Shown here in pieces: positions 1-64,000 of a DNA stretch of 64,000 nucleotides. How positions within the stretch are numbered: position 1 is the stretch's first letter; each line of letters starts with the position of its first letter. This stretch comes from Deinococcales bacterium. GTDB taxonomy: Bacteria > Deinococcota > Deinococci > Deinococcales > JAAFIG01. The stretch spans positions 66,134 through 130,133 of the forward strand of contig JANYHH010000028.1 of assembly GCA_025359505.1 (NCBI GenBank), given 5' to 3'. The notes beneath the pieces were generated by a model. That model was not told where the DNA came from. It ran no database searches and saw only the letters and a list, made by a program, of their open reading frames with translations. The position numbers were made by a program, and so were the translations under genes.

Positions 1-329
1 GCTTCGGCGGCGGGCTGACGTGGCGTTTGGCGACCGCCATGAGCGACCTGCGAGCGGCCGTGCCGTTCTACGGCCCATCGCCAGACATCGCAGCCGTCCC
101 CAACATCAAAGCGGCTGTGCTCGGCATTTACGGCGGGTTGGACGCCCGCATCAACGCGGGCATTCCGATGCTCGAGGAAGCCTTGAAAAAAGCTGGCACG
201 AAATACGCCATTAAAATTTACGACGGCGCGAACCACGCGTTCAACAACGATACGGGCGCGAATTACAAGAAAGACGCGGCAGATGACGCGTGGAAGCTGA
301 CGCTCGAGTGGTTCAAGAGCAACCTGTAA
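1..329 (+). CDS. dienelactone hydrolase family protein, C-terminal fragment (5' end outside window)
   Basis: The reading frame is open to the window edge. The C-terminus ...LGIYGGLDARI...YDGANHAFNND...AADDAWKLTLEWFKSNL is typical of DLH-fold hydrolases. Stop at 327-329, followed by a long hairpin. Confidence 0.7.
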   Translation, partial: FGGGLTWRLATAMSDLRAAVPFYGPSPDIAAVPNIKAAVLGIYGGLDARINAGIPMLEEALKKAGTKYAIKIYDGANHAFNNDTGANYKKDAADDAWKLTLEWFKSNL

Positions 330-334
330 AGGCA

Positions 335-400
335 GGCGAAGGGCAAAGTGCGAAGGGAACGGCTGGTTTTCCTTTCGCACTTTGCCTTTTGCCTTTCGCC
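335..400 (+). terminator. long imperfect hairpin after the hydrolase gene, built from the GGCGAAGGGCAAAG motif
   Basis: The left arm ggcgaagggcaaagtgcgaaggg (335-357) pairs with the right arm cctttcgcactttgccttttgcctttcgcc (371-400). There is no clear T-run, so the terminator role is inferred. Confidence 0.45.
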
Positions 401-422
401 CGCTCGAGGTAAACTGCACCCT

Positions 423-1505: not shown

Positions 1506-1510
1506 AAGTA

Positions 1511-1647
1511 CCCCCCCTGCGAAGTAGGGGGGAAAGCCTCGAGCAAACTCGAGCTAGAGGGTCTTGCGGCGCGAGTACGAAACTGAGCGTCGCACGACCC
1601 CCAGCTGTTCCCGAAGGGAACGTGCTACCCCCTACTTCGCAGGGGGG
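1511..1647. mobile_element. MITE/SNR-like 137-bp structured repeat, copy L
   Basis: The termini are ccccccctgcgaagtagggggg and ccccctacttcgcagggggg (terminal inverted repeats, each itself a hairpin). There is an internal GTTCCCgaagGGAAC hairpin. The reverse complement is about 88-90% identical to copy R at 5761-5897. Confidence 0.8.
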
Positions 1648-1701
1648 TAACTCGGGCAGGCTCGAGGCTCGAGCGGCTTTGGTGCGTCTTGTACTGCATT
1701 C

Positions 1702-4700
1702 ATGGACGCGAACGCTGTTCGGCAGGCTTTACAGCAACTCGCGGACACCTTGGGGACGCGCAATCCGACCGAAGACGACGTTGAAAAAGGCTTCGTGGAT
1801 GTCTACCGCGCTCTGGGATACGCGACGGCGGGGCGAGATTACCGTAATAAATCCAGAGATGTCAGCGGCGTGCCAGATGTGATGTTGCACAATTCGGATC
1901 GTTCAATTCAGGTGATCGTCGAGCTAAAAAAGCCGACTGAGAATTTAGAGCAACACGAGAAGCAACTGGCAGACTACCTACTGTCCTTGCGCGAGGCACG
2001 TTGGGGCTTGTTGTCAAACGGTCACACATGGCGGGCGTATCAGCGTGACGGTAAAAGCGTGGATTTGGTCTGGCAAGCGACGTTAGCGGATTTGCAAAGC
2101 GAGCCGCAGCAGCTCGAAATTTTCGAGCGTCAGGTGATCGAGGTCACCAATTACGAGGAAATCGCCGAACGCTTGAACGAAGCCAACCGCGAGGGGTTGA
2201 CGCCGCAAGGTTTGAACGATCTGGCGACCGATGAGTTTCTGTTCACGTTCAGTTTGAAAGAGGGCAGTCCGTTCGCGGCGCTGGTCGGCGCGACGCAGGA
2301 CTTGCTGATTGCGCTCGAGCAGCAAAGCGATTTCGTGCACGGCGCGTATGACTTTTGGAAGAAAGCCTATGCCCGCGAAATTGATTCGGACGACATCCCG
2401 AAGCTTTGGCTGGGCAGTAAACTCAGCATTGTCGCCAGCAAAGAGGGCTTATACCGCTTCTCGTACAGCTTGGAAACGGCTTACACACTGACCGCGCGGC
2501 TGATTCTCGCCAAAGCGATTCAGGACAAAGACGTAACACACGCCGTCACCAAAACCAACCTAGCTGAGCGCTTGCTAGAACACCTCAAAACCAAACGCAA
2601 CTTACGTAATGTGCTTGAGCCAGAAGCGTATCTCGAGGCGACGAACGACCTGTTCGACGATTACGCCCGCACGCTCTTTACGAGCATCTACGCCAAGGAT
2701 ATTTTTGATTGGTGGCGCGATTACGGCGTGGCTGCCGACCAACCGCGCCGTGCGTTCGCTCGGGCCGTGGCGGATTTGGAGATTGCGCTGCTGCGCTTTG
2801 ATTTCCGCACCTTAGAGGGAGACCTGCTCGGGGAAATGTACCAACGCTACTTTGACGCCGATACCCGCAAAGCGCTCGGCGAGTTTTACACCCCGAAAGC
2901 CGTCGTGGACTTTATTCTGGATGAAGTTGGCTACGACGGTGACGGCACACTGCTTGACCCTGCGACAGGCAGCGGCACGTTCATCGTCAGTGCGTTGCGG
3001 CGTTACTTGAAGAAAAACTCGAGCAAAGACCCCGTGCAGACGCTGCGGGGCATCACCGAGCAGTTCAAGCTCGTGGCGTTTGATGTCAACCCCTTTGCCG
3101 TCATCATGGCGCAGATTGGTTTCGCATCGGAATTGCTACCGCTGTACGGCAAAGCGATTGCCACCGATCAAAACTTCGTGCTGCGCCGCCTACCAATTGT
3201 TCGCACAGATTCGCTGCGTAAGGAGATCGTCGAGGGCGAGCAGCAAGCCGAGGACGGTCAGCTCGGGTTCGCGTTCGAGGAGCGCGAGATCAAAGCCAAG
3301 CTCGAGTTACCCGTGAAAATCGGCACGGAGTTTCTGAGTGTCGAAGTCGTCTTCCCGCGTTTGGAGACCGCCAAGATGGATGGCGTGATCGCCAACGTGC
3401 GGCAGTGGCTGCAAGCCTTGCAAGGCGTCTTTGCGGCCGTGGAAGTGCTGTCGCAAGCTAAGGACAGGGGGCAGAAGTTGCCCAAGATCGCCACGGAGTT
3501 AAAGCACCAATTCGCCGCTCAGCACGCCAGCCCCGAAAAATTAGTCGCGTACCTCGAGCCATATGCGAGCGGTGTGTGGAAGACGCTGCTGGACTTAAAA
3601 GAGAACCACGGTGACGGGCGGTTTCTGAAAACCTTAGAGGATTTGATGCTCGGCTTGGTCTTAAAGCACTACATGCGTTACGACTTCGTGGTCGGCAATC
3701 CGCCTTACGTGCGCGTGCAGAACATCCCAGATTTTCAGCGACGTTACTGGGAAAGTAAATACGCGTGGGTAGAGAAGAACTTCGATATTTTCATTCCGTT
3801 CATCGAACGATCCTTGCACGGCGACACCCGCCAAACGGCTGCGGAATCGTGCTGGCTCGAGGAGGGAGGGCGACTGGGCTTCATCGTGCCAAACCGTTTT
3901 ACGAACGTGGAGTACGCCAGTCGCTTCCGTGGAGGATTGCCGCATACCGCCAAGGTCATCAGCATCACGGATTTCAAAGCGGTGAAATTTAAGCCGGTGA
4001 TCGCCAAACCCGCTGAAAGCATCTTCGCGGAAGCCAGCGTTTACCCCGCGATTCTGATTGCCGAGAACACCACGCCCGAGGCCGCGTACACGTTTCGCGC
4101 CGCACGAATGTACCCAGTGGACGCCAGCATCACCCCGACCGACGCGCTGGCGGCGATCAGAAAAGCCAGTCCGACGGGCGCGAATAGCTCGAGACTGCTA
4201 TCAGGCGGTGCGGAGTACGCCGATGTCTTCTTGCAAGACAGTTCGCACTTGCAGGGCAAAGGCTGGTTTTTGATGCCGAGCGACGAACGCGCCGTGTTCG
4301 ATAAACTCGAGGCGATTGCGGGCAGCCACGACAAGGCGTTGCCGATCAGCACGGATCGCACGCGGCGTTTGGAAAACTACACGACGACCTCGAGCGGCGG
4401 GTTTGCAGGAATTCAAACTTCACTCGATGACGTGATGGTTTTGAAGGAACTCGAGCGCGACGACATCAAAGGATTCATCAACGTCTATCCAAAGGGCGGC
4501 ACATCCAAAGACGCCGTGTGGCTCGAGGCGGCAGCGCTGCGACCGTTCGTATTCGGGCGCGACGTACAGCGTTGGAACGTCGGCTGGGAAAACTGGTGGG
4601 TGATCTTCCCGTATTTCCAGCACGAGGGCGCGGTGCTGCTGATGCCCTGCGCGGATTACTGGGATTTTGAGGTGATGACCGGACGCGGCCCGAACGCTAA

Positions 4701-5727
4701 ACCGCGCCGTGTGTTCAATGCCGAAAAGTACCCCGATCCCAGCCCAATGATGAACGAAATGTACCCAAAGCTCTGGGCGTATTTGAAAAAGAACGAAGTC
4801 GCTCTACGCGTTCGAGAAAGCGGCAAGTTCAAAGTTGGCAAACTCGAGGAATGGAAATGGTACGACCTCGCTTATCCACGCAGTCTTGCCGAAGCAGGCT
4901 CATCGAAAATACTCGGGCAGTTGCTCGCGGAAAAAGCCCAGTTTGCTGTAGAAGACGAAGGCGATATTTACTTTCAAGGTGGCGGCAAAGGCGGCGGCGC
5001 ATACGGAATCGCGCTCATCTCGAAACTCGAGAAACACTTCGTCACTGGCTTGCTCAACAGTTACTCGCTCGATTTTCACTTGCGTCAACTCAGCAGCACC
5101 TACGCGGGCGGATTTTACTCTTACGCCGACGCATTCTTGAAAGACTTACCGATTCCAGACGCCTCCAAAAAAGATCAAAACCGCATTGCTAAACTCTCCC
5201 AAACCCTGACCACGCACACGGCATCGGCTCGAGCGCTCGAGAAAGACATCGCTGGCTTCCCCGAGAGCGTTAACGCTCAACGCCGTGCGGCGGGCAACGT
5301 CCCCGATTTAGACAGCTTAGAAAATTTGCTAAGTGGCAGCGGCGGCTTGACCAGCGAACTGAAGTGGCACAGCAAAACCAGCCTGAGCCAAGATCTGATG
5401 GGCGAATGGGTGCTGAGCATCCCACGCGGCAAAAGCGCCACCACTGAACTCAGAGCGGGCAGTCAAACTCTGCTCGAGCTGACCAAAGCGGCATTACTCG
5501 AGCGTGGCAAGATCGGCAGGAGCGACCTTTTGGCGTTGCGCGTCCCTGAAAAAACGGCCGCGCAACGCCAATACTTAGAAACGCTGCAAAACTGGAAAAC
5601 CACGCTCGAGACCACCCGCGCCCAGATTCGCACGCTCGAGAGTCAACTCAACGACATTGTGTACACCGTGTTCAACCTCACCAAAGCCGACCGCAAAGTG
5701 ATTGAAAGCTTCCTCGAGCGATTCTGA
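1702..5727 (+). CDS. Type IIG/IIL restriction-modification enzyme (fused PD-(D/E)XK nuclease, gamma-class N6-adenine methyltransferase and target-recognition region)
   Basis: N-terminal nuclease motif VPDVML...IQVIVELKKP (PD...ExK). SAM motif I LDPATGSGTF (about 2953-2982). Catalytic motif IV VVGNPPYV (about 3688-3711). The C-terminal ...NDIVYTVFNLTKADRKVIESFLERF helix is typical of the Eco57I/TaqII-like family. No separate R, M or S partner genes are present. Confidence 0.88.
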   Translation: MDANAVRQALQQLADTLGTRNPTEDDVEKGFVDVYRALGYATAGRDYRNKSRDVSGVPDVMLHNSDRSIQVIVELKKPTENLEQHEKQLADYLLSLREARWGLLSNGHTWRAYQRDGKSVDLVWQATLADLQSEPQQLEIFERQVIEVTNYEEIAERLNEANREGLTPQGLNDLATDEFLFTFSLKEGSPFAALVGATQDLLIALEQQSDFVHGAYDFWKKAYAREIDSDDIPKLWLGSKLSIVASKEGLYRFSYSLETAYTLTARLILAKAIQDKDVTHAVTKTNLAERLLEHLKTKRNLRNVLEPEAYLEATNDLFDDYARTLFTSIYAKDIFDWWRDYGVAADQPRRAFARAVADLEIALLRFDFRTLEGDLLGEMYQRYFDADTRKALGEFYTPKAVVDFILDEVGYDGDGTLLDPATGSGTFIVSALRRYLKKNSSKDPVQTLRGITEQFKLVAFDVNPFAVIMAQIGFASELLPLYGKAIATDQNFVLRRLPIVRTDSLRKEIVEGEQQAEDGQLGFAFEEREIKAKLELPVKIGTEFLSVEVVFPRLETAKMDGVIANVRQWLQALQGVFAAVEVLSQAKDRGQKLPKIATELKHQFAAQHASPEKLVAYLEPYASGVWKTLLDLKENHGDGRFLKTLEDLMLGLVLKHYMRYDFVVGNPPYVRVQNIPDFQRRYWESKYAWVEKNFDIFIPFIERSLHGDTRQTAAESCWLEEGGRLGFIVPNRFTNVEYASRFRGGLPHTAKVISITDFKAVKFKPVIAKPAESIFAEASVYPAILIAENTTPEAAYTFRAARMYPVDASITPTDALAAIRKASPTGANSSRLLSGGAEYADVFLQDSSHLQGKGWFLMPSDERAVFDKLEAIAGSHDKALPISTDRTRRLENYTTTSSGGFAGIQTSLDDVMVLKELERDDIKGFINVYPKGGTSKDAVWLEAAALRPFVFGRDVQRWNVGWENWWVIFPYFQHEGAVLLMPCADYWDFEVMTGRGPNAKPRRVFNAEKYPDPSPMMNEMYPKLWAYLKKNEVALRVRESGKFKVGKLEEWKWYDLAYPRSLAEAGSSKILGQLLAEKAQFAVEDEGDIYFQGGGKGGGAYGIALISKLEKHFVTGLLNSYSLDFHLRQLSSTYAGGFYSYADAFLKDLPIPDASKKDQNRIAKLSQTLTTHTASARALEKDIAGFPESVNAQRRAAGNVPDLDSLENLLSGSGGLTSELKWHSKTSLSQDLMGEWVLSIPRGKSATTELRAGSQTLLELTKAALLERGKIGRSDLLALRVPEKTAAQRQYLETLQNWKTTLETTRAQIRTLESQLNDIVYTVFNLTKADRKVIESFLERF

Positions 5728-5760
5728 ACTTGACCTCGCTGCGAAGCAGTGAAAAAGTCA

Positions 5761-5897
5761 CCCCCTGCGAAGTAGGGGGTAGCTCGTTCCCTTCGGGAAC
5801 GGCTGGGGGTCGTGCGACGTTCAGTCTCAAACTCTCGTCGCACGACCCCCCTAGCTCGAGCGAAGCTCGAGGCTTTCCCCCCTACTTCGCAGGGGGG
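5761..5897. mobile_element. MITE/SNR-like 137-bp structured repeat, copy R (inverted relative to copy L)
   Basis: Same terminal hairpins as copy L. It contains a perfect 15-bp internal stem (GGGGGTCGTGCGACG ... CGTCGCACGACCCCC), a GTTCCCttcgGGAAC hairpin and a CTCGAGcgaagCTCGAG pair. It ends 7 nt before the DUF559 ATG. Confidence 0.8.
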
Positions 5898-5904
5898 TAC
5901 ATTG

Positions 5905-6303
5905 ATGGCTATGAAGACGTACACTCGCGCCCTCATTCCTCGAGCGCAGCAGATGCGGCGTGAGATGACCAAAGCTGAGGCGCGGCTTTGGTTTGAGGTG
6001 CTGCGTGATTTTGAGCCTCGAGTACGGCGGCAGCGTCCGATTGGTGGGTTCATCGCAGATTTTTACTGCGCGGCTTGCAAGGTCGTGATTGAGGTAGATG
6101 GCGATTCGCACTTTACGCCAGATGGTCTGCATTACGACGCGCAGCGTACGGCGTTACTCGAGGGGCTGGGGTTGCGGGTACTGCGGTTTTCCAACGCGGA
6201 TGTCTTTGAGAATCTGCACGGTGTGACTGTGCAAATCATTGAGGTTTTGCAAAAAGACCAATCGAGCGTATCCACACTCAATCCTCGAGCAGCCCCGCTG
6301 TGA
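5905..6303 (+). CDS. DUF559 endonuclease-domain protein (Vsr-like fold)
   Basis: MTKAEARLWFEVLRD...RRQRPIGGFIADFYCAACKVVIEVDGDSH...DAQRTALLEGLGLRVLRFSNADV matches the DUF559 signature. I chose the ATG at 5905, because the upstream ORF part (5812-5904) merely translates the MITE. Confidence 0.8.
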   Translation: MAMKTYTRALIPRAQQMRREMTKAEARLWFEVLRDFEPRVRRQRPIGGFIADFYCAACKVVIEVDGDSHFTPDGLHYDAQRTALLEGLGLRVLRFSNADVFENLHGVTVQIIEVLQKDQSSVSTLNPRAAPL

Positions 6304-7891
6304 TGCGCCAGACCAACTCTGGCAACTCCCCGAAACTGTACGGCATGTACGCCCGCTCGAGCCACTGGTGGTAATCGCGTCCCCACGGGCCAAGGTTGAT
6401 GCACGGCAGGTTGGCAGGCGGCGCGGTGATCTGCGCGTTCGGCGCGGGCGTGTTGGCGTTGACCACACCAATCTGGGCTGCATCGCCGCGCCCGAACCAG
6501 CTCATATCACTGATGCCCATGAAGTAGCGGCGCTCAGCGATGCTGCTGGGGGCGGTCTCGAGGACTTCGCGCACGACGCGCATCATCTTCGCGTCGCTGG
6601 GGACGGTTTCATCTAAGATCGTGCTGGGGTAATGCAAGGAGCCAAAGCTCAGCACAACGGCTGGCCCCAGTAAGCCTGCCTTGTCCCACAGCCAGTTGAT
6701 GATGGTCAAGGATTGCGTGGCGAGCGCGGTCTGCGCGTCAATGGTCTCGAGGTGCTGGGCGAAATCAACTTCAAAGCCGGGGGCGCTGTTGGCGCGGGCA
6801 GCCTCAAGCAGTTCTGCGTAATTCAGCACCAATCCTGTAGAGCTGTGAGCGGCGGAGTCAAACCGTCCAAGCGCTTCGGCGCGGGTTCGCAACGTCTCCA
6901 ACGCGGCCTCGAGCGCTGATGTTGCCTCGTGGGTGAAATCTGTCAGCACTGCGCTGGCAGATTTGCCGTGCATCGGCGCGTTGAAGCACGCCCACGCTCG
7001 TGCGGGCGTAGTCACGTCGTAATGGGTTTTCAGATCGGTTTGGCGCAAGTTCGTCGGCGGCGTGCCAATCTCCCCTTTCGACTGGTCGGTCAGCCGTGGA
7101 TTGCCCTCGAAATGGTGCGTGATCGCCGAGGCGATAAAATTGGCGTTGATGCCGTCCAATGCGTAGCCCGCGTGGACATCCGCGCCGACGCAGAACGCGC
7201 AGACCAGCAGCTTGCCGACGCTGCCCAAGTAGACCGCTCGCCCGTCCGTGCCATCGCCGCTGTCGCTGGTCGCGTCCAGATTGATCACGCCGACAATCTC
7301 GAGGTCGTGTTTTGCTGCCCACTTCAGCAGTTCTGGTGCGGCAGCCCGTGCGCCGTGCGATTGGTCTTCCTCGTCGGCGACCGCGACGAACAGGATGTTG
7401 CCAACGCGGGTCTCGAGTGCTGCGAATTTGTACAGCGCGACCAGTCCGGCCGCTAAGCCCGCTTTCATGTCCAGCAAGCCGCGACCGGGCAGGAAATCGC
7501 CGCCCTCGAAGTCAGCCAATGCGCGGCGCTCAGGCTCAGTGCGGGCGTTGACACGCAGATCGGCAATCAGGCGCGGCAGCAATGCTTCAGGGTCGAACGC
7601 GTAGTCTTGGTGCGATCCGTAATTGCCCACGCTGACCACATCGAAATGCCCCGTCAGCACCACGGTTTCGCGCCCAGTCCCTCGAGCCAAGGCGTAAACG
7701 TTACTGCGGCGTTGCGGATCGCCTTTGATTTCCCCGACCCAAACCTGATCGGGGTGCGCCGCAAAGTATGTATTTCTCAAAATAATGTCGTGCAACACGC
7801 TCGGAAAGGCGCGTTCGCCATCGGTATTGGTGACGCTCGAGGCTCGCACCATTTCCACGGTCAGCGCCCTCGCCAGCTCAAAATCGGTCAT
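6278..7891 (-). CDS. M20 family metallopeptidase (ArgE/DapE/RocB-like)
   Basis: 537-aa ORF with VVLTGHFDVV and FVAVADEEDQSHGA metal-ligand regions typical of M20. ATG at 7889-7891. Confidence 0.8.
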   Translation of the reverse strand: MTDFELARALTVEMVRASSVTNTDGERAFPSVLHDIILRNTYFAAHPDQVWVGEIKGDPQRRSNVYALARGTGRETVVLTGHFDVVSVGNYGSHQDYAFDPEALLPRLIADLRVNARTEPERRALADFEGGDFLPGRGLLDMKAGLAAGLVALYKFAALETRVGNILFVAVADEEDQSHGARAAAPELLKWAAKHDLEIVGVINLDATSDSGDGTDGRAVYLGSVGKLLVCAFCVGADVHAGYALDGINANFIASAITHHFEGNPRLTDQSKGEIGTPPTNLRQTDLKTHYDVTTPARAWACFNAPMHGKSASAVLTDFTHEATSALEAALETLRTRAEALGRFDSAAHSSTGLVLNYAELLEAARANSAPGFEVDFAQHLETIDAQTALATQSLTIINWLWDKAGLLGPAVVLSFGSLHYPSTILDETVPSDAKMMRVVREVLETAPSSIAERRYFMGISDMSWFGRGDAAQIGVVNANTPAPNAQITAPPANLPCINLGPWGRDYHQWLERAYMPYSFGELPELVWRITAGLLED

Positions 7892-7948
7892 GCGGGTGAG
7901 TCTAGCTCGAGGGGCGGGATTGTCTCGAGTTCAGTGCAGTGGTGACGC

Positions 7949-8392
7949 TCATCGCGTGCCAGCATCGCGCAGCAGGGCGAGCAGTTCGCCCGGCCGGATC
8001 ACGGGGATCGCAATGCCGCTGGGGTGTTGAAACGCTCTCTGGGTGAGCAAATCGTCATCCAAGGACACCAGTGTGTCGGCGTGACTCGAGATCGCCAACG
8101 CCACCAGAAAATCATCATTCCTGTCTCTTGTTACCGCCATGGGATTCGGCTGCTCAGGGTAAATCTCAGTCGCGTGCGCGAAGGCTGAGATGGCGCGGTG
8201 GGGTTGCGGAAGCGCAAATCGCGCACACAACTTGGGTTTTTGCAAACTCGCCAGCAACTCCTCAAATAGCCCTTGCGAAGCGATCACGTCAATCAACGCT
8301 TACTCGTACCACAGTCGCAGGCACTCGCCAGAACCGCCTTTGGGATTAAGCAAACCCGCCACGAAAACGCTGGTGTCCAGCGCGACCCTCAA
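7949..8392 (-). pseudogene. PIN-domain toxin (VapC/TIGR00305-like) interrupted by an in-frame TAA
   Basis: Reading the minus strand from TTG at 8392-8390 gives LRVALDTSVFVAGLLNPKGGSGECLRLWYE, then TAA (8302-8300), then ALIDVIASQGLFEELL...DRNDDFLVALAISSHADTLVSLDDDL in the same frame. The conserved PIN acidic residue (LDTSV) lies upstream of the stop. Confidence 0.7.
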
Positions 8393-8625
8393 CGCGAGGC
8401 TCGAGCAGAAGCGGTTTCCGGCTGAGGCTTTGCGCGTTCGCGGCGCACAGAGCGCACCGTGACCACCGCCAGCCGATCCGCTTCGTCACCTGTCAACTCG
8501 AGGTGCGAGAACGACGCTTGCAGGTCTTTCAAAGCGTTCAACCCGAGGTATTCGCGCAGCGCGGTTTCGATCAACGATTGATCGGTCATGCCTTGCCGCA
8601 CGGCCGCCAAGCGGTAGGCCCGCAC
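8389..8625 (-). CDS. ribbon-helix-helix (CopG/VapB-like) antitoxin, possibly N-terminally compromised
   Basis: ...YRLAAVRQGMTDQSLIETALREYL is RHH-like. The stop TGA overlaps the toxin TTG (TTGA). The expected RHH beta-strand KVTLNLASDV is encoded in-frame upstream of the first usable start (GTG at 8625). There is no ATG, GTG or TTG between it and the upstream TAA (8688-8686). Confidence 0.6.
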   Translation of the reverse strand: MRAYRLAAVRQGMTDQSLIETALREYLGLNALKDLQASFSHLELTGDEADRLAVVTVRSVRRERAKPQPETASARASR

Positions 8626-10221: not shown

Positions 10222-11382
10222 GTGCAACGCAACATCAGCTTGACGCCCGTCATCACCGCTTCCACGTATCTGGGGATGGTCAGCATCGGCGCGGTGGGCG
10301 GCTCGTATGGCGCGGCGCTCGAGGTGCTGCGGGCAACGTTCGGCGTGGGTGACGCGCAGCTTGGCTTGCTGGGAACGGCGCAGACGGTCGGGGGACTGCT
10401 GGGGAATCTCAGCTCAATACCACTCGAGCGTATCCTCACCGCCGGGCAGCGATTGTGCGTTGGCGGTCTGGTGTTTGCCTTCGGCGCGGTTTGCTTCGCG
10501 CTTTCAGCGAAATTTGAGCTGGCGCTGCTGGCGCTGTTGACGATGGGGCTGGGGATGGGCTTATTTCAGATCAACTTTTCCAGCCTGTACTCCAGAGGCT
10601 TCGGGGTGCGCTCGGGCGCGGTGATGGCGGTGATGAGCAGCGCCTTCGCGGTCGGCAGCATCGCGGGGCCGGTCATGGCGGCGGCGCTCACCACCAATTA
10701 CCGCCTCTTACCGATTGGTTTCGGAGTGCTGAGCGCGGTGCTGGCCGCGATGCTACTCACGGCCCGCGACACCAGCCACGCTGCTCCCTCGAGCCATCCG
10801 CCCGCCAAGCTCGAGGGAGCAGCGTGGCTGTTTGGGCTGATGGTCTTTTTTTACGTGATGGCGGAGCAGGGCGCGTCGTTCTGGGGCGTCGCGCATTTGG
10901 AGAGCCTCGGAGTCAAACACGAGGCGGCGGCACTGGTGATGTCGCTGTTCTGGGCGGGGTTGCTGATCGGGCGCTTCGCGGGCGCGGCGCTGAGCCTGAA
11001 ATACTCCAGCCGCACGATGATGCTGGGTAGTGCGGCGGGCGCGACGCTGTGCTTCGCGGTGTCTCACGTGCCAGCGGTGGCGGGAGCAGCCTACATCGCG
11101 GCTGGTTTGTGCTTCGCTACCGTGTTCCCCACCGGGCTGGTCTGGCTGGCGCGGTTCAACCCGAGCAGCCAAGCGATCACGCTGTACTTCGTCGCGGGTT
11201 CAGTCGGCGCGGCGCTGGGCTTGCCGCTGATCGGGGCGCTGAAAAACCTCTTCGGTGCGAGCGCGATTCCGACCGCGCTGACCGTCTCGAGCGGCTTGTG
11301 TCTACTGACGATCTACGCGATTGGAATGCGTCAGCCGCAAGACGATGCGGCCCGAGCAGCCAGACTAGAATCCGTCGCATGA
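10222..11382 (+). CDS. MFS transporter (12-TMS type)
   Basis: Hydrophobic, multi-TMS translation from [23 protein letters not shown] onward. GTG at 10222 is the first start beyond the antisense overlap with lysK, so the exact start is uncertain. Confidence 0.7.
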
Positions 11383-16286: not shown

Positions 16287-16375
16287 TCCCTTCCAGCGCG
16301 AGGCTTTTCTCGCTTTTTCTAAGCAGCGGTTCGTCGGCCCTTCACCCTCTCGAGCAGGAATTAAGGAGAACCACC

Positions 16376-17620
16376 ATGAGGAAACTGGTTGCATTTGGCA
16401 TCATTGCCGCAACAGCCGCGCTAGGCGTTGGCGCGAATATCGTGCAGGGACAGGCGAACGTCATCACGATTGGCGGCTACGACGGCGCGACCGACACGGC
16501 GATTGTTGGGGAACTGATCAACAAGTACGTCAAGCCCAAGCTCGATGCCGACGGTATTACCGTCAAATACGTGCCGACGGCCGATTTTGGCAAGTCGATT
16601 GTCAACCAGCTCTCGGCTGGAACTGCGCCAGACCTGTTTTACTTAGAGGACGCCGCCGCTCAAGGGCTGATCGGCACGGGCAAGGTTTTGCCGCTCAACG
16701 GTTTGTTCAACGCCAGCGAATTCGTGCCGAGCCTCAACAAAGTCTTCTCGCAAAGCGGCAAGCAGTACGGCATCGCCAAGGATTTCAACACGTTGACGAT
16801 GTACTACAATAAGGACTTGTTCGATCAGGCCAAGGTCGCCTACCCAGATTCGGACGACACTTGGAACGATTTTGAAACCAAAGTCACCAAAGTCCAAACC
16901 ACGCTCGGCAAGGGCTACTACGGCACGTGCTTCCCAGCCGAATACGCCCGCTTCGGTGCGTTTGCCGCCTCGACGGGCTGGAAGCCAATCCTCGCTGGCG
17001 GCCGCACCATTTTGGACAGCCGCTTTAAGAGCGCCTTCGCGTTTTACACCGGCCTTGTCAAAAAAGGCTTTGCGGTCAAACCCAGCCAAGTCAACGCTGG
17101 TTGGGGCGGCGATTGCATCAAGAGCGGCAAAGTTGCTACCGCATTTGAAGGCGGCTGGGCGCTGGGCTTCCTGCGCGACAACGCCCCGAACCTCAAGTAC
17201 GGCACGGCGTTACTCCCGAAAGACCCCGCGAGCGGCAAGCGTGGCAACTTGATCTACACCGTCGCATGGGCAATCAATGCCGGAACCAAGAACAAAGCGG
17301 CGGCCGTCAAGGTGCTCACCGCACTGACGAGCGTCGAAGCCCAGCAGTTCGTGCTGCGGAGCGGTCTGGCCCTGCCAAGCCGCGTGTCGTTGCAAGCCGA
17401 CCCGTACCTCAAAGGCACGAGCGCTGAGCAAGTCGCCTTTAAGAACGTCTTCACCGGCGCAACCGACGGCAACGCCGTTTCGTTCGCTCCAGACAAATTC
17501 GGTGGCGACTGGTATCGCCCGATCGACGAGGCTTTGAGCGCCGTGATGGACGGTCAGAAAAGCGTTGACCAAGCCATCAAGGACGCCCAGACCGGTTTAG
17601 ATCGCGTGATGAAGAAGTAA
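16376..17620 (+). CDS. sugar ABC transporter substrate-binding protein (CUT1 family)
   Basis: Signal peptide MRKLVAFGIIAATAALGVGA and a family-1 SBP-like body. AAGGAG lies 8 nt upstream of the ATG at 16376. Confidence 0.88.
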   Translation: MRKLVAFGIIAATAALGVGANIVQGQANVITIGGYDGATDTAIVGELINKYVKPKLDADGITVKYVPTADFGKSIVNQLSAGTAPDLFYLEDAAAQGLIGTGKVLPLNGLFNASEFVPSLNKVFSQSGKQYGIAKDFNTLTMYYNKDLFDQAKVAYPDSDDTWNDFETKVTKVQTTLGKGYYGTCFPAEYARFGAFAASTGWKPILAGGRTILDSRFKSAFAFYTGLVKKGFAVKPSQVNAGWGGDCIKSGKVATAFEGGWALGFLRDNAPNLKYGTALLPKDPASGKRGNLIYTVAWAINAGTKNKAAAVKVLTALTSVEAQQFVLRSGLALPSRVSLQADPYLKGTSAEQVAFKNVFTGATDGNAVSFAPDKFGGDWYRPIDEALSAVMDGQKSVDQAIKDAQTGLDRVMKK

Positions 17621-17750
17621 AGCAGTATCTGCGAGTCGAAACTTGGACATCTGAATTGAACAAATCACTAAAGTAAATTGCTGCGGCGCTAAAAACACTC
17701 AGCAAGTCCAAGATTTCGACATGTGTACACGAATGTACTTAACTCTGCAC

Positions 17751-17792
17751 AGCTCGAGCGTTGGCGGGAGGAAGCGGGTTCAACGCTCGAGC
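17751..17792 (+). other. stem-loop in the SBP-permease spacer, with arms built on CTCGAG
   Basis: AGCTCGAGCGTT (17751-17762) pairs with AACGCTCGAGC (17782-17792). It sits inside a 390-bp, partly AT-rich spacer that also carries GTCGAAACTTGGAC (17635-17648) paired with GTCCAAGATTTCGAC (17706-17720). Confidence 0.5.
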
Positions 17793-26942: not shown

Positions 26943-27139
26943 AGCTTGGGTCTCACTGGCTCGAGTCTACCCTGATTACGCTTGGAGCGAAATTATTCGG
27001 GCAACCACGATCCTCGAGACCGTTTTTAGTTCATTTATAGAAACTACTTCACAAATTGAATCATAACGTGTTGAATAGAGCGCAGAGGCAAGCACTGTCT
27101 CACTGCTCGAGGAGCAAACCTCGAGCCAAAGGAGCGAAT

Positions 27140-32288: not shown

Positions 32289-32319
32289 AGCCCCTCGAGC
32301 AGTTGTTGCTTGAGGGGCT
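32289..32319 (-). terminator. rho-independent terminator (bidirectional hairpin) between convergent genes
   Basis: AGCCCCTCGAGC-agttgtt-GCTTGAGGGGCT. On the minus strand the stem is followed by TTTTTTT (32282-32288), directly after the coiled-coil gene stop. Confidence 0.8.
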
Positions 32320-35654: not shown

Positions 35655-35786
35655 GTGCCCTCCGAAGTGCGTCGCATCAGATACCCGGTAGCTTACCGCG
35701 TGAAAACCCTTCGAGAGGCGAAAGTTGCACACGGCCGCGAAAGCCAGCGAAGCTGTCTGGATACCTGTGCCCTGCGAGGCTCGAGG

Positions 35787-44478: not shown

Positions 44479-44547
44479 GCACACGACCTCGAGAAACACG
44501 CTGGCTCCTCGAGGGGCTGCTGCACGCTGCGCGGTAGAGTCGGTACA

Positions 44548-50915: not shown

Positions 50916-51120
50916 GGGGGAGTCTACCAACTCGAGCGGGGCGAGTCTGTCTCGAGGGATCGCGACCGCTCGAGCGGTCGCACAGGGCATTGCTGTAAAT
51001 CTCTCCTACAAAAAACCGCGCATTGCTCGAGCAGCGCGGGTGATTGGTCAGCCGTCACCGAAGGTCAACCCATATTTGAAGGCTCGAGATTCACAGCGTT
51101 GCGACTCAGGATAAAACGTC

Positions 51121-57629: not shown

Positions 57630-57632
57630 TGT

Positions 57633-59282
57633 TCAGACCCTCTCGGCGCGTTTGCTGACGCCCGGCTCGAGGGGCAATGCTGGCGTGACGATCACGGTTT
57701 TCTGATTGGTGAAGTACACCGCGCCCGCTTTCATGCCTTTTGGTTTCCAGACGAATTTTTTCGGCATGTAATCTACCGCCACCGACGTACTCCCTCGAGC
57801 CTTACTGTGCCACGCCGCAATCGCGGCTGCCTCGATAATATCGCTGTACGGCACTTCGCGGTTCAGGGCGCGTAAGACGACGTGCGAGCCGGGGTAGCCC
57901 TGCACGTGAAACCAGACATCCATGCTCTGCGCCAATCTAAAGGTCAGAAAATCGTTCTCCCTCGAGTTGCGCCCGACCAGCACATCAAAGCCGCTGGACA
58001 TGGTGCGGTACTTGATGCCGACGGGCGGCGGCGCGGTCACGCCGTCGGCATTGTGCTGCATCAGCATCTCGAGCTGCGCGGTGTCGGCAGTCTCGAGGTC
58101 ACGCAGCAGCGTCATGACCTCACGTTGCTGGCGCTCGAGTTCCGGTTGACGCTCCACGAGTCTCAAATGGACTTCCTCGCGGCGTCTGGCGCGGCTGTAC
58201 AAGCGATTGGCGTTTCCAGCCGCGTCCAAATCCGGCTCGAGGGGAATACTCACGCTGCCCTCGCCGTAAAGGTTTGGGAGCGTCACGCTGTTCACGCCAC
58301 TAGGGACTTGCTGACGGAACGCCAGCAGTGCGTCCGCCCACTCGCGCCACTGGATCGCGTCGATCACGGCTGCTTCAGCTCGCGTCAAATCCTCGAGCTG
58401 CTTTTTTAGTAACTTCGCACGTTTCTCTAATGGCTCGCGCAACCCGCGCCGCAACTCTTGCAAGCGCTGATCTTGGGAGCGGGCGCGGGCTTGGTCGGAC
58501 AGCGACGCGGCGCTCGAGAGCGACGGGTTTCGCACCAGATCGCGCAGCGCTATGAGCGGACTCGTCAGTGAGGCGCGGTACTCGAGTTCAGCGCTCAACG
58601 TCGGGCCCAGCCCGTCAATGGACGCGCCCCATTTGCTCGGCGGCAGTGCCAGCACCGCGCTCAACTCGGCATCACTGGCGGCTCGAGGGTCAAGCTTTTG
58701 GTACGGCGGCGGCAAGGTGTACGTGCCACCCGTCCGCAATGTCCGAAAGCGATTGCGGGCAGCGGTCACTTCCCTCGCGGGCGCGGTGATGCGACCCTCG
58801 AACAGTGCCGCGTCCTCGAGACCCGCACCGCTCCCCGCCAACAGCAGCAGATTGGCGTTGCGTCCCGTCAGTTCAAACACCAGTCGCGCCTCAGCCGTGG
58901 ACACGAAGCCCTCGCTGGCGGCAAACTCGAGCATCACTACGCGGTCTAACTTGTATTGCACAGCGCGAATCAGATTGCCTTTGAGGCGCGTCTCTAAGAG
59001 GCGCTGGAACGGGTTGATCGGACTGCCCGACAAGCGATCCGCGTTGACGTACATGGCTGGCGTCGGCGGGCGAATGCTCAGCACGACATTGAAAATATCC
59101 TTCGGGCCCGCCTTACCCTCGAGCAATAGCGAGGCCGTGGTTTCGTTCGGGAAGACCCACCCCAGATTGCGAGCGGGCAGCTTGGTCACAAGCTCCTCGA
59201 GAATTTTAGCGATGAACAGACCTTCCACGGGGGCAGCTCCTAGCTGTTCGCTCTTAGCCATTAGCTCAGCGCTAAAGTCCAA
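57633..59282 (-). CDS. rqcH: NFACT-family ribosome quality control protein (RqcH / FbpA-like)
   Basis: N-terminal NFACT-N, a central coiled coil, and a C-terminal NFACT-R/DUF814 (VLVGRNSRENDFLTF...DVWFHVQGYPGSHVVL). TTG start, exact position uncertain. Confidence 0.85.
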   Translation of the reverse strand: MDFSAELMAKSEQLGAAPVEGLFIAKILEELVTKLPARNLGWVFPNETTASLLLEGKAGPKDIFNVVLSIRPPTPAMYVNADRLSGSPINPFQRLLETRLKGNLIRAVQYKLDRVVMLEFAASEGFVSTAEARLVFELTGRNANLLLLAGSGAGLEDAALFEGRITAPAREVTAARNRFRTLRTGGTYTLPPPYQKLDPRAASDAELSAVLALPPSKWGASIDGLGPTLSAELEYRASLTSPLIALRDLVRNPSLSSAASLSDQARARSQDQRLQELRRGLREPLEKRAKLLKKQLEDLTRAEAAVIDAIQWREWADALLAFRQQVPSGVNSVTLPNLYGEGSVSIPLEPDLDAAGNANRLYSRARRREEVHLRLVERQPELERQQREVMTLLRDLETADTAQLEMLMQHNADGVTAPPPVGIKYRTMSSGFDVLVGRNSRENDFLTFRLAQSMDVWFHVQGYPGSHVVLRALNREVPYSDIIEAAAIAAWHSKARGSTSVAVDYMPKKFVWKPKGMKAGAVYFTNQKTVIVTPALPLEPGVSKRAERV

Positions 59283-59893: not shown

Positions 59894-59947
59894 GAAGCGA
59901 TCCTGCCCGTGAGGTGCATGGGTTGGATCAAGAAGCGATCCTGCCCG
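59894..59947. repeat. 16-bp direct repeat pair in the 360-bp spacer upstream of darA
   Basis: gaagcgatcctgcccg occurs at 59894-59909 and 59932-59947. A second pair, aaggtgctg, lies at about 59966 and 59989. Confidence 0.8.
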
Positions 59948-60040
59948 CTAGCGCCGCAAACCCGTAAGGTGCTGGTATCAGCGGCAAGAAGGTGCTGTTG
60001 TCAGGGTCAGGACAAGCTGAAAGATTTGAGCGACGCTTCA

Positions 60041-61618: not shown

Positions 61619-61639
61619 CTTACAAGCCCAAAACGCCGT

Positions 61640-63997
61640 TCAACCCTCGAGCCGCGCCTTGACGAGCGCCTGCACGAGCTGCGGATTGCCCGCGCCTTTG
61701 GTTTGTTTCATCACCTCACCGACAAAAAACCCGAGCAGCCCGATTCGCCCAGCGCGGTACGCCTCGAGCTTGTCCGGGTTCGCAGCGATCACGGCTTCAA
61801 CCAGCGGCTCGAGGCTGCCCGCGTCGGAAACTTGCTTCAGCCCGTCGCGTTCGACAATCTCGAGCGGGTCTGTGTTTGTCGCCAGCGCTTGCTCCAAAAC
61901 GTCCTTGACCATGTTGCGCGACAAACTTCCAGATTGCAGTAACTCGAGCAGGGCGCGAAGTTGAACAGGGGTGACGCTGCTGGATTCACGCAGCCCAAAC
62001 TGAATCACGTAACTCGAGGCTGCATTGTCTCCGACAGCATCAAAGTACGAGCGCATTTCGGCATCTCGAGCCAATACGAGGCTGTCCGCGTCGTTGACGC
62101 CACGGGCTTTCAGAGTCTCGAGGGTTGCTTGCTCATCGGGGGTTAGCTCGAGCGTCGGCTGTAGGGGCGACCGGATTGCGGTCGCCCCTACGGGTTGGGC
62201 GGCGGGCTTGCTCGAGACGGTGGCGCTTGCAGAACCCGTGTTTGCTTCTTGCGTGATACTCGAGCTTGCCGTGACCGTCCAGTTATCCTTCAAACCAATA
62301 ATCCGGTTGAACACCAGCGCCTCGGGTCTCGAGTCGATCTGATCCTGCCAGAAATACCCGCCGCGCTCGAATTGGTAGCGCGTGTCGGGTGGATCGTTCA
62401 GCACGCTCGGTTCGATCACGCCGCTCACAATCTCGAGGCTGTCTGGGTTGATGAAATCCAAAAAATCTTTTTCTTCGCCGTCCTCGTCTTCATCCCCCTC
62501 GAGCTTGGCTTCGGCTTCTGGGTTTGGAACGCTGAACAGGCGGTCGTAGAGCCGTGCGGTGAACGGTACGCCGTCAGCGGCGCTGACCCAGTGAATCACA
62601 CCGCCCGCTTTCTCGGTATCGGCAAGCAATTCGCAGATCAAACCCGTGATCTCGCCCGCGTCGTCGCGCAGCACCTCGAGACATTGCATCACGCCTGCAC
62701 CGCGCAACCGCACGCGCCCACCGAGCGTCAAGCGCTTGTAGCCCGCTGGCGGCTCGAGAGAGAAGTCCTCGCGCTCAATGAAAATATCTCTGGTCAGTTT
62801 CACGTCTCGAGTGGCTTGCTCACCTACGACGCGCTCGCCGCTTGGCAGTGGCACAGTGCCGTCGCTCGAGGCTTTGACGACATCCTGCGGGTAGTACGGC
62901 ATCGTCACCGTGCGGCTGGTCTCGAGATTCGTCAGCGTCACGCGCAATGGGCGCAGCACCGCCATGACTCGAGGGGCGCGGGCGTTGAGGTCATCGCGGA
63001 TCGCGTGTTCAAAGGCGCTCAGGTCAACCGTGCGGTTCGTGCGGGTCACGCCGATTCCAGCGGCGAAGGTTTGAATCGCTTCGGGGGTCACGCCGCGCCT
63101 GCGCTGCGCGGCGATGGTCGGCATTCTTGGGTCATCCCAACCGCTGACCAGCCCCGCCTCGATCAGTTTTTTCAACTTGCGCTTGCTGACGACCGTGTAT
63201 TCCAAACTGCGCCGTCCGAACTCGTACTGATGCGGGCGCGACTTTAAGGCGGGATGCTCCAAATTGTCCAGCAGCCAGTCGTAAATGGCGCGATTGTCGA
63301 CGAACTCGAGGCTGCACAGGCTGTGCGTAACAAAGTTGGTCGCGTCGTTGATGCTTTGCGCGAAATCGTACAGCGGGTAGATGCACCACGCATCCCGCTG
63401 TCGGTAATGCGTGGCGTGGAGGATGCGGTACAGCCCCGGATCGCGCAGTTTCATGTTCGGATTTGCCAGATCAATCTTCGCCCGAAGCAGATGAGCGCCG
63501 TCGGGGTACGCGCCCGCTCGCATCGCACTGAACAGCTCGAGGTTATCGGCAACGCTCCTCGAGCGGTACGGACTGGGCGTTCCAGCTTGCGTGGCCGTGC
63601 CGCGCAGCCGAGCCATTTCGTCGCTCGAGACGCTATCGACGTAGGCCAGCCCTTTTCCAATCAGTTGCACCGCGCACTCGTACATCACCTGAAAATCGTC
63701 CGACGCGAACCGCACCTGCGGCGCTACCCAGCCCATCCACTCGAGATCTGCGCGAATCGCGTCCACGAACTCTTGGCGCTCGGTCAGCGGATTGGTGTCG
63801 TCCATCCGCAGCACGAACGAACCGCCGTACTGCGCCGCCAGATTGAAGTTCAAGTTGCAGGCGAAGGTATGCCCGAGGTGCGGATAGCCGTTCGGCTCGG
63901 GCGGGAAGCGCGTGACGACGCGCTGCACGCGCCCAGAGGTGAGATCAGCTTCAATGGTTTCGGTGATGAAATTGGGTTGCACGACGCGCACGGACAT
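61640..63997 (-). CDS. glnS: glutaminyl-tRNA synthetase with a C-terminal YqeY/GatB-like appended domain
   Basis: Class I HIGH (PEPNGYPHLGH) and a KMSKS-like VVSKRKL. After a low-complexity linker, the C-terminal ~150 aa (...QLRALLELLQSGSLSRNMVKDVLEQ...IAANPDKLEAYRAGRIGLLGFFVGEVMKQTKGAGNPQLVQALVKARL) form a GatB_Yqey domain, as described for D. radiodurans GlnRS. Confidence 0.93.
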   Translation of the reverse strand: MSVRVVQPNFITETIEADLTSGRVQRVVTRFPPEPNGYPHLGHTFACNLNFNLAAQYGGSFVLRMDDTNPLTERQEFVDAIRADLEWMGWVAPQVRFASDDFQVMYECAVQLIGKGLAYVDSVSSDEMARLRGTATQAGTPSPYRSRSVADNLELFSAMRAGAYPDGAHLLRAKIDLANPNMKLRDPGLYRILHATHYRQRDAWCIYPLYDFAQSINDATNFVTHSLCSLEFVDNRAIYDWLLDNLEHPALKSRPHQYEFGRRSLEYTVVSKRKLKKLIEAGLVSGWDDPRMPTIAAQRRRGVTPEAIQTFAAGIGVTRTNRTVDLSAFEHAIRDDLNARAPRVMAVLRPLRVTLTNLETSRTVTMPYYPQDVVKASSDGTVPLPSGERVVGEQATRDVKLTRDIFIEREDFSLEPPAGYKRLTLGGRVRLRGAGVMQCLEVLRDDAGEITGLICELLADTEKAGGVIHWVSAADGVPFTARLYDRLFSVPNPEAEAKLEGDEDEDGEEKDFLDFINPDSLEIVSGVIEPSVLNDPPDTRYQFERGGYFWQDQIDSRPEALVFNRIIGLKDNWTVTASSSITQEANTGSASATVSSKPAAQPVGATAIRSPLQPTLELTPDEQATLETLKARGVNDADSLVLARDAEMRSYFDAVGDNAASSYVIQFGLRESSSVTPVQLRALLELLQSGSLSRNMVKDVLEQALATNTDPLEIVERDGLKQVSDAGSLEPLVEAVIAANPDKLEAYRAGRIGLLGFFVGEVMKQTKGAGNPQLVQALVKARLEG
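62158..62194. repeat. REP-like hairpin GTAGGGGCGACC-N7-GGTCGCCCCTAC embedded in-frame in the glnS linker
   Basis: A perfect 12-bp stem (62161-62172 with 62180-62191). The minus strand reads CCCGTAGGGGCGACC..., translated as PVGATAIRSPLQ. The same 15-mer occurs in the intergenic copy at 20582-20596. Confidence 0.8.
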
Positions 63998-64000
63998 AAG

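Follow-up and report, generated by a model that had tools for sequence, protein, structure and literature searches.

The 64,000-nucleotide stretch of a Deinococcales bacterium analyzed here (contig JANYHH010000028.1, positions 66,134 to 130,133; called the window below) raises one question: why is a single six-base palindrome, CTCGAG, repeated through it so densely? The answer that emerged is that CTCGAG belongs to the highly iterated palindromes (the HIP class, known from HIP1 in cyanobacteria) and that it is driven at the DNA level. The original prediction, made by eye from the sequence, had suggested such a HIP1-like element at 5 to 10 sites/kb, or several hundred copies, and every test that we ran supports this reading. 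An exact count over positions 1 to 64000 gave 419 copies (6.5/kb; mean spacing, 152 bp), located in genes, in all three reading frames, and in every class of intergenic DNA. The hyper-abundance is thus confirmed, and the effect exceeds the earlier estimate. The local counts made by eye were exact (14 in 1-1700, 8 in 30001-31100, and 10 in 50001-51100), the "about 21" sites given for a 4-kb restriction-modification (RM) gene were 20, and the coordinates of closely spaced pairs were correct within 1 to 3 bases.

In 100 dinucleotide-preserving shuffles of the window, CTCGAG occurred 26.0 times on average (standard deviation, 5.0; maximum, 39), corresponding to an observed-to-expected ratio (O/E) of 16. 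Markov models of order 0, 1, and 2 (M0 to M2) predicted 20.7 (O/E 20), 26.9, and 35.1 copies, and after the motif had been masked in the background, the expectation was 19.8 by M0, 11.4 by M2, and 10.9 by the third-order model M3 (O/E 38). CTCGAG was also the top hexamer of the window, more than 2-fold above the runners-up TCGAGC (195) and GCTCGA (183), which are its own overlaps. The original prediction would have yielded to a Markov expectation within about 2-fold of the count. Such a value came from the maximal-order model only (343 expected; O/E 1.22), and we did not take it as a refutation, since this model is circular, being built from the motif's own subwords: CTCGAG itself accounts for 419 of the 470 CTCGA, 419 of the 460 TCGAG, and 419 of the 630 TCGA in the window. 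The low-order and masked models remain far below 419, and the motif lies above the HIP-class threshold (O/E greater than about 16 and more than 0.2/kb; Xu et al. 2018).

The driver had been proposed to act on DNA rather than through protein selection. We analyzed open reading frames (ORFs) backed by Pfam, here called confident genes, against a synonymous shuffling that leaves all protein sequences and the total codon usage unchanged. This null is conservative, because its codon pool already includes the codons of the motif. Confident genes contained 319 CTCGAG in total, compared to 63 ± 7 after shuffling. By frame, there were 217, 41, and 61 copies in frames 1, 2, and 3 compared to 56.4, 1.6, and 5.4, so that frames 2 and 3 exceed expectation 26-fold and 11-fold and the motif does stand in all three frames, as had been claimed. 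Outside Leu-Glu contexts, CTC represented 18% of the Leu codons and GAG 54% of the Glu codons. Noncoding DNA harbored 76 copies in 6.3 kb (12/kb), compared to 1.85 expected from its own composition (O/E 41), in good agreement with the reported frequency of the motif between genes. About 82% of all copies lie within genes, where the density is around 6/kb, about half of that in noncoding DNA. Hence, under the control for Leu-Glu and codon usage that the original prediction had proposed, the excess persists in frames 2 and 3 and in noncoding DNA. Together with the spread among relatives and the conservation of sites between orthologs described below, this bears out a DNA-level driver. Tandem, divergent, and convergent intergenic regions contained 13.2, 9.7, and 12.9 sites/kb; since these classes are alike in density, the sites do not mark promoters or terminators in particular. 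We rejected an association with either for this reason and because hairpins formed by the sites are at about chance level.

The excess has nevertheless changed protein sequences, pushing them toward Leu-Glu. This was the dipeptide with the highest O/E (337 compared to 127 expected; 2.7-fold), whereas the reverse dipeptide Glu-Leu was normal at 130, and 64% of the Leu-Glu pairs were encoded as CTCGAG, compared to 17% expected. The longest gap without a site (16355..17752; 1404 bp between site starts) holds a solute-binding-protein gene with 2 Leu-Glu only, and the genes sparsest in CTCGAG generally encode membrane and transport proteins. We attribute their low density to protein constraint, as such proteins have few Leu-Glu, and for the same reason we rejected the idea that low-density genes are recent imports.

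What is repeated is the bare, exact hexamer, not a part of a larger repeat. From positions -8 to +8, the flanks carried at most 0.07 bits (0.04 to 0.07 at G/C-biased positions); the statement that they are mostly G/C is weakly true (67 to 72% compared to a background of 60%), but they are almost uninformative. TCGA outside CTCGAG was found at expectation (211 copies). The 18 variants that differ from CTCGAG by one base had O/E values of 0.07 to 1.5 over the whole window. In noncoding DNA there were 20 of them compared to 32 expected, with a log ratio of about 4.2 between the enrichment of the motif and that of its one-base variants, and in-frame nonsynonymous one-off codon pairs were mostly at expectation. 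The absence of enrichment among these variants means that the motif has no fringe of decaying copies, and since near-matches gain nothing, recognition looks all-or-none. The gaps between sites had a coefficient of variation (CV) of 0.97, as in random placement; the sequences between close pairs shared nothing; and no helical or longer periodicity was detected within 150 bp, only a 3-base one. A longer repeat unit, a mobile repeat, and regular spacing were all rejected, given the unrelated intersite sequences and the CV of the gaps. Likewise, repetitive extragenic palindromes (REP) and miniature inverted-repeat transposable elements (MITE) share sequence past their core and are mainly extragenic, whereas here no flank is conserved and most copies are genic. 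An Rfam scan of the window gave no match.

Two hairpins with CTCGAG in their arms had been reported, and both are real. The first (17752..17792, plus strand), terminator-like and 3' of the solute-binding-protein gene, has a 12-bp perfect stem (GCTCGAGCGTTG/CAACGCTCGAGC) with CTCGAG in both arms. The second (32289..32319), between convergent genes, carries CTCGAG in one arm only and the one-off variant CTTGAG in the other. Among 150 close CTCGAG pairs, 11 extended to a stem of at least 9 bp, which is around the chance level by a rough estimate that was not computed. The coding sequence of an MFS transporter gene contains a 22-bp perfect inverted repeat (10772-10831; CAGCCACGCTGCTCCCTCGAGC, a 14-base loop, and GCTCGAGGGAGCAGCGTGGCTG), again with CTCGAG in both arms.

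To which organisms does this excess belong? The window encodes a GlnRS with a C-terminal GatB/YqeY domain (61640-63997), a fusion found in Deinococcota only among named database matches, which places the window in this phylum. The original prediction had implied the genus Deinococcus. The phylum holds and the genus does not: the GlnRS is 55 to 58% identical to those of named Meiothermus, Calidithermus, and Deinococcus and 62 to 88% identical to metagenomic proteins, and the Deinococcus samples avoid CTCGAG. For each relative, we analyzed about 22 kb around the GlnRS gene, taken from independent NCBI, ENA, and JGI assemblies; gene calls in the relatives were ORF based, and some of the Thermales data come from plasmids. 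The six metagenomic relatives (GC content, 0.45 to 0.63) harbored 4.0 to 7.7 CTCGAG/kb, with O/E values (by M0, as in all comparisons between organisms) of 15 to 26. Individually, these were L082 (GlnRS 84% identical to that of the window; GC, 0.59; 7.7/kb; O/E 24), L083 (69%; GC, 0.59; 4.7/kb; O/E 15), L084 (70%; GC, 0.63; 6.0/kb; O/E 18), L085 (63%; GC, 0.63; 7.7/kb; O/E 23), L086 (62%; GC, 0.45; 5.1/kb; O/E 26), and L219 (66% over 78% of the query; GC, 0.46; 4.1/kb; O/E 19.5). In L082 to L086, the O/E of Leu-Glu was 2.3 to 2.7, 53 to 78% of the Leu-Glu pairs were CTCGAG, and the noncoding density was higher than the coding one. Even in the 45% GC genome L086, CTCGAG made up 67% of the Leu-Glu pairs, where codon usage predicts 5%. 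The excess recurs in assemblies from NCBI, ENA, JGI, and Logan.

Outside this lineage the excess was milder. We found 2.3/kb (O/E 6.8) on a chromosomal contig of Meiothermus taiwanensis, 2.3/kb (O/E 6.6) on the Allomeiothermus silvanus plasmid pMESIL01, 2.6/kb (O/E 7.5) on the Oceanithermus profundus plasmid pOCEPR01, and 3.3/kb (O/E 9.7) in Deinobacterium chartae, CTCGAG being the top hexamer in the last three. Deinococcus maricopensis (0.09/kb; O/E 0.3) and Deinococcus radiodurans MP1 (0.06/kb; O/E 0.2) avoid the motif. In a background set of 73 unrelated bacterial loci, recovered as ThrC matches of 53 to 63% identity from unrelated phyla, the median O/E was 0.66 and the maximum 3.3. The picture is thus graded: full excess in the lineage of the window, milder excess in Thermales and Deinobacterium, and avoidance in the two Deinococcus samples.

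Some mobile DNA carries the excess as well. The temperate Meiothermus phage MMP17 carried 2.6 CTCGAG/kb (O/E 7.8), the same level as its host genus, and the lytic Thermus phage P23-45 carried 0.2/kb. Scanning IMG/VR for three sites within 80 bases matched at least 120 stretches, and among the matches listed, at least 20 viral or proviral loci contained 3.2 to 5.9 sites/kb. One viral contig (L212; GC, 0.57), with genes for a tail protein, a tape measure protein, and a head-tail adaptor, had 73 sites in 14 kb (5.2/kb). In phage MMP17, a very-short-patch-repair endonuclease gene adjoins a D12-class N6-adenine methyltransferase gene (26062-27388).

If the motif is maintained as such, its sites should outlast their surroundings, and this is what we observed. 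In blastn-aligned blocks, 36 to 79% of the window's sites were CTCGAG in the relative as well, compared to 9 to 46% identity among all hexamers. Two long ortholog blocks were available: the GlnRS-YqeY fusion gene (minus strand), the densest long gene with 25 CTCGAG, 15 of them in frame as Leu-Glu, and an NFACT-family gene with 15 CTCGAG (57633..59282, minus strand). Where an in-frame site had kept Leu-Glu, it was CTCGAG in 95, 70, 68, 95, and 100% of the cases in five relatives, whereas other conserved dipeptides retained identical codon pairs in 56, 33, 36, 36, and 13%. CTCGAG sites were thus kept 2 to 7 times better than comparable codon pairs. The Leu-Glu at these sites was itself conserved above other dipeptides, for example, 98% compared to 79% and 71% compared to 52%. 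A codon alignment of GlnRS from ten Deinococcota genomes, of the kind that the original prediction had suggested, revealed both synonymous holding of sites and lineage-specific amino acid replacements. Single sites were common to up to 7 of the 10 genomes, including Meiothermus and Deinobacterium (columns 568 and 794), and several Leu-Glu had, in particular lineages, replaced Gln-Glu, Val-Ala, Val-Thr, and others (columns 481, 749, and 809). In D. maricopensis, the same conserved Leu-Glu was encoded CTGGAG, not CTCGAG. A hexamer-exact force at the DNA level, active throughout the lineage and at single sites, multiplies and preserves CTCGAG, overriding some protein and synonymous-site preferences.

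The comparison with the closest relative, L082 (85% DNA identity), gave a view of how sites come and go. Thirty-six CTCGAG sites were present in only one of the two genomes, and at 29 of them the other genome differed at 2 to 4 of the 6 positions, while the flanks of ±18 bases averaged 80% identity. Among all nonidentical hexamers, 42% differ at two or more positions, so that 29 of 36 is an excess (binomial P, 4e-6). Four of the 36 (53824, 55447, 58777, and 62973) pair CTCGAG with CCCTCG/CGAGGG, readable as the CTCG core shifted by two bases. This may mean that new sites form at places where both codons can change freely, or it may reflect patch-like mutational events.

Many other palindromes show the opposite sign in the window, in a pattern of the restriction-avoidance type. 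We counted 1 CCWGG and 1 GGWCC (206 expected for each), no GGYRCC (129 expected), no GCGCGC (46 expected by M0 and 118 by M3), none of TGCGCA, CTGCAG, and GAGCTC (21 expected for each), 2 CCGCGG (46 expected), no GAGCCC/GGGCTC, and 170 GGCC (515 expected); GATC was 1.7-fold over expectation. The avoided set varies among relatives, GCGCGC being enriched in L084 and L085, for example, whereas the CTCGAG excess is constant. GAGCTC, the reverse palindrome, which encodes Glu-Leu, was found in 0 to 1 copies in each of seven lineage loci. Enrichment in a lineage with otherwise very strong avoidance indicates that CTCGAG is not treated as a restriction target. The avoidance may also have touched the other codon pairs that encode Leu-Glu. 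Among Leu-Glu pairs other than CTCGAG in the window and in L082 to L086, CTG-GAR was 2- to 2.4-fold depleted compared to codon usage, and TTG-GAG (about 2-fold) and TTA-GAG were enriched, over a range of 2- to 3.5-fold; none of this was seen in Thermales. The pattern may be partly a result of the near-total ban on CCWGG, because CTG followed by G after a codon ending in C would make CCTGG.

The palindrome CCTCGAGG, which extends the motif by one base on each side, behaves differently from the hexamer. It occurs once in the window (44507..44514) and is otherwise excluded: with C at -1 in 112 sites and G at +1 in 121, about 32 copies would be expected from independent flanks (Poisson P, 3e-13). 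Five relatives together had 15 compared to about 53 expected. The viral contigs do not avoid the octamer. In D. chartae, 33 of the 74 CTCGAG sites were CCTCGAGG, and it was the top 8-mer in the A. silvanus and O. profundus plasmids and in phage MMP17. In the first 50000 bases of the Thermus thermophilus HB8 plasmid pTT27, 39 of the 45 CTCGAG were CCTCGAGG, and 45 of the 49 TCGA lay inside CTCGAG. There, CTCGAG was below the synonymous-shuffling expectation (40 compared to 84) and the octamer was at expectation (34 compared to 28), so that TCGA seems to be avoided except within the octamer.

CTCGAG hence shows the features of the HIP class, namely, threshold excess, independence of codons, lineage-wide spread, and conservation of sites between orthologs, although it is not HIP1 itself: the HIP1 core CGATCG was found 9 times in the window, compared to 21 expected, and the iterated word is CTCGAG. 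The original prediction knew of no described CTCGAG equivalent, and our full-text literature searches also found no CTCGAG iterated palindrome.

Which protein could read such a word? All-or-none specificity for a hexamer would be expected of a type II-style recognition protein, and the best candidate would be a solitary N6-adenine methyltransferase specific for CTCGAG, as in three Thermales species. For these, type II CTCGAG methyltransferases that produce N6-methyladenine (m6A), with no partner endonuclease, appear in the supplementary tables of Blow et al. 2016 (PMC4752239): M.Mru1279II of Meiothermus ruber, M.Mch9957IV of Meiothermus chliarophilus, and M.Mhy14884I of Marinithermus hydrothermalis, with 99.5%, 94.1%, and 94.6% of the CTCGAG sites modified, respectively. 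The main text of that study mentions CTCGAG for Nocardia only, where an orphan CTCGAG methylase is tied to origin-proximal site clusters; Meiothermus, Thermus, and Deinococcus are absent there. In the available portion of a 2026 hot-spring methylome preprint, CTCGAG is a shared methylated motif, within a group that this portion does not tie to Deinococcota.

Our best explanation, to which we assign a probability of roughly one half, is that this HIP-type palindrome is most likely the target of a solitary m6A CTCGAG methylase and serves as a genome mark. Each site would be methylated on both strands and hemimethylated after replication. CTCGAG is about as dense as GATC is in Dam-positive enterobacteria, and at such a density it could act as a genome-wide strand or "self" mark, to be read by replication, repair, or nucleoid proteins. 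The benefit per site would be small, and selection, or an equivalent fixation bias, would gain and keep sites wherever the protein tolerates them.

Several observations weigh against this explanation. Pfam and tblastn searches revealed no CTCGAG methylase in the window or in about 200 kb of related DNA. No MutH- or SeqA-like reader is known in Deinococcota. Meiothermus (Allomeiothermus) silvanus showed no CTCGAG methylation in the study of Blow et al. 2016 (PMC4752239), and yet its plasmid carries the excess described above, indicating that enrichment can persist without detectable methylation. Simple one-step selection does not predict that 29 of 36 gains and losses are multi-base, and this turnover, the higher noncoding density, and the random spacing of the sites, as well as the excess shared by a temperate Meiothermus phage and phage-like contigs, would be explained equally well by a bias without function.

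The only methylase domain in the window belongs to a type IIG RM fusion of 1341 amino acids (aa) (1702-5727; HSDR_N/MmeI_N-like, N6_Mtase, Eco57I, and TaqI_C domains; 5.0 CTCGAG/kb). Its homologs are patchy, with relatives at 61 to 72% identity, Deinococcus spp. at 47 to 50%, and others in haloarchaea and Terriglobia, which suggests that the gene is mobile. We rejected this enzyme as the conserved CTCGAG methylase because of these patchy homologs and because no Thermales were found among its best 120 matches. A tblastn search with its methylase domain, run against the clade and later loci (L081 onward, the ThrC background loci being excluded), recovered type I HsdM only. Together with its neighbors, the gene looks like a small defense islet (1702-8625), with a DUF559 protein and a PIN-domain toxin, the latter having a small ORF upstream; the genes of these two are separated by an M20/M28 peptidase gene (6278-7891). 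The DUF559 gene (5905-6303) had been singled out in the original prediction for its Vsr fold, as a possible agent of very-short-patch-type repair. The gene is real (Pfam E value, 1e-27), but we found no link to CTCGAG, and the transition variants CTTGAG, CTCAAG, TTCGAG, and CTCGAA, which such repair would deplete, were not depleted (O/E 0.7 to 1.5).

The excess could also be the work of a molecular drive without any cellular role, in which a repair or gene conversion bias, possibly coupled to methylation, turns near-matches or patches into CTCGAG. We regard this as the main alternative, though clearly a less probable one than a methylase-read mark. Any DNA replicating in these cells would be affected, and purifying selection on proteins would only slow the process. 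In agreement with this, the density of CTCGAG is doubled where protein constraint is absent, noncoding one-off variants are mildly depleted, as a sink would produce, the spacing is random, and phage MMP17, viral contig L212, the plasmids, and the apparently mobile RM gene all match the host level. The multi-base turnovers within flanks that are about 80% identical likewise suggest patch-like events. On the other hand, we know of no repair system that installs a 6-bp palindrome, the transition variants just named are not depleted over the whole window, and nonsynonymous one-off codon pairs are mostly at expectation. In addition, the word has been kept across GC contents of 45% to 68% and GlnRS identities down to about 57%, so that an equally conserved enzyme would be needed. 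A bias in fixation and weak selection produce identical sequence patterns, so that the present data cannot tell the two apart.

A more specific form of such a bias would be a new sequence-specific repair or recombination process that writes CTCGAG in short multi-base patches, on chromosome, plasmids, and phages alike. We keep it as a tentative reading, less probable than a drive in general, on account of the 29 of 36 multi-base turnovers, the four CCCTCG/CGAGGG pairs, the depleted noncoding one-off variants, and the mirroring of the host by phages. If true, CTCGAG would be the trace left by a molecular drive of a new kind and not a selected signal.

A signal for natural transformation, through uptake or preferred recombination of own-species DNA, appears unlikely. 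Such a signal would spread by a self-reinforcing bias or act as reported for HIP1 in Synechococcus; a 2024 preprint (10.1101/2024.09.10.611283) reports better transformation with HIP1, an effect that depends on homology and on methylation. CTCGAG resembles uptake sequences in occupying all frames, shaping peptides, being conserved, and having a higher density outside genes. Natural competence is a trait of Thermus and Deinococcus. However, known uptake sequences are nonpalindromic, 9 to 12 bp long, present at about 1/kb, and often paired in terminators, whereas CTCGAG is a 6-bp palindrome at 6.5/kb with hairpin pairing at about chance level. Moreover, DNA uptake by Thermus has been reported to be sequence independent, the competent Deinococcus avoids CTCGAG, and phages carry it too.

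We consider it equally improbable that CTCGAG is a dense site for a nonmethylase protein, for example, a nucleoid-associated or chromosome-organizing factor, with sites selected for occupancy. The genome-wide spread, including intergenic DNA, would fit, and a chromosome or nucleoid role has been argued for HIP1 (Xu et al. 2018, PMC5861425). However, nucleoid proteins usually accept mismatches, and in the window near-matches gain nothing. The sites also have no periodicity, helical or longer, within 150 bp, and we know of no candidate protein. Finally, it is scarcely conceivable that the excess is a by-product of codon usage, of a Leu-Glu-rich proteome, of a word space squeezed by avoidance, or of repeat copies or assembly artifacts: in its favor, both CTC and GAG are frequent codons, the genome bans many further GC-rich words, and the maximal-order O/E is low, but that figure is circular, and these origins are refuted by the synonymous shuffling with its modest CTC and GAG shares outside the motif, by the excess being greatest in noncoding DNA, by the lack of Glu-Leu enrichment, by the unrelated flanks and intersite sequences, and by the recurrence in independent assemblies.

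A 1130-aa protein encoded at 32340-35732 (minus strand) has no Pfam match and contains 48 Leu-Glu (42 per 1000 residues), with only 12 CTCGAG. It may be a coiled-coil or surface protein. In L086 and L219, proteins close to it in size (1135 and 1107 aa) and without Pfam matches on record adjoin pilin-like genes.

These results have some practical consequences. The cost of CTCGAG is paid in protein, with one dipeptide inflated 2.7-fold across the proteome. Cloning with XhoI, binning by k-mers, and codon models will give odd results on these genomes, and CTCGAG is a simple marker to assign contigs and phages to this lineage; viral contigs such as L212 could be assigned to Deinococcota hosts by it. 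M. ruber is cultivable, has a milder excess, and encodes a solitary CTCGAG methylase that has been mapped (Mrub_2385), which opens the question to gene deletion.

Among known systems, very-short-patch repair in Escherichia coli (CCWGG/CTWGG) resembles the present case in that a repair bias at a methylated palindrome shifts word frequencies. Its effect is below 2-fold and depletes specific transition neighbors, whereas that on CTCGAG is 20- to 40-fold and leaves these neighbors undepleted. In addition, methylation of CTCGAG is likely m6A, without deamination to a mismatch. The uptake sequences of Pasteurellaceae (USS) and Neisseriaceae (DUS) are similarly over-represented, occur in all frames, influence peptides, and possibly spread by a self-reinforcing bias. 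They are, however, nonpalindromic, longer, and present at about 1/kb, with many imperfect copies and pairing in terminators, none of which applies to CTCGAG, a palindromic 6-mer with flanks of at most 0.07 bits, unenriched one-off variants, and stems of at least 9 bp in only 11 of 150 close pairs.

Closer to the mode that we propose is the Dam/GATC system of gammaproteobacteria, with a solitary m6A methylase and a palindrome that occurs every 150 to 250 bp and is hemimethylated after replication. The difference is that GATC, a 4-mer, is near its chance frequency, whereas the 6-mer CTCGAG would have been amplified about 20-fold to reach such a density. The solitary methylases M.Mru1279II, M.Mch9957IV, and M.Mhy14884I share the very word, and Thermales DNA shows a 6- to 8-fold CTCGAG excess. 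The orphan methylase of Nocardia shares the word too and has a proposed role in replication, but its sites are clustered at the origin and not genome-wide as here.

The closest relative in kind is HIP1 (GCGATCGC). Both words are short, exact palindromes, hyper-abundant throughout a lineage in genes and between them, and both are conserved at orthologous positions above background (for HIP1, Xu et al. 2018, PMC5861425). Each has a link to word-recognizing methyltransferases without a partner endonuclease (for HIP1, Elhai 2015, PMC4390886), in the case of CTCGAG through the Thermales species. Both also have lineage-specific variants (for HIP1, PMC4390886): the lineage of the window uses bare CTCGAG, whereas Deinobacterium, Thermus, and the Meiothermus phage favor CCTCGAGG. 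On the other hand, CTCGAG belongs to Deinococcota, is a different word of 6 bp instead of 8 bp, and is 2 to 20 times denser (4 to 8/kb compared to 0.3 to 2.7/kb; PMC4390886), with a lower fold excess (about 20 to 40 compared to 55 to 228). It measurably inflates one dipeptide, and its candidate enzyme is a single m6A methylase, whereas HIP1 has the GATC plus CGATCG pair. HIP1 shows a periodicity of 10 to 90 kb; the CTCGAG window spans 64 kb, and the gaps within it are random.

CTCGAG is thus a second, independent highly iterated palindrome beside that of cyanobacteria. After three decades of study in one phylum, the function of HIP1 is still debated. An independent case with another word, another phylum, and another type of methylase provides its first real comparison, and whatever explains HIP1, be it strand marking for repair, nucleoid structure, transformation, or drive, ought to hold for CTCGAG as well.

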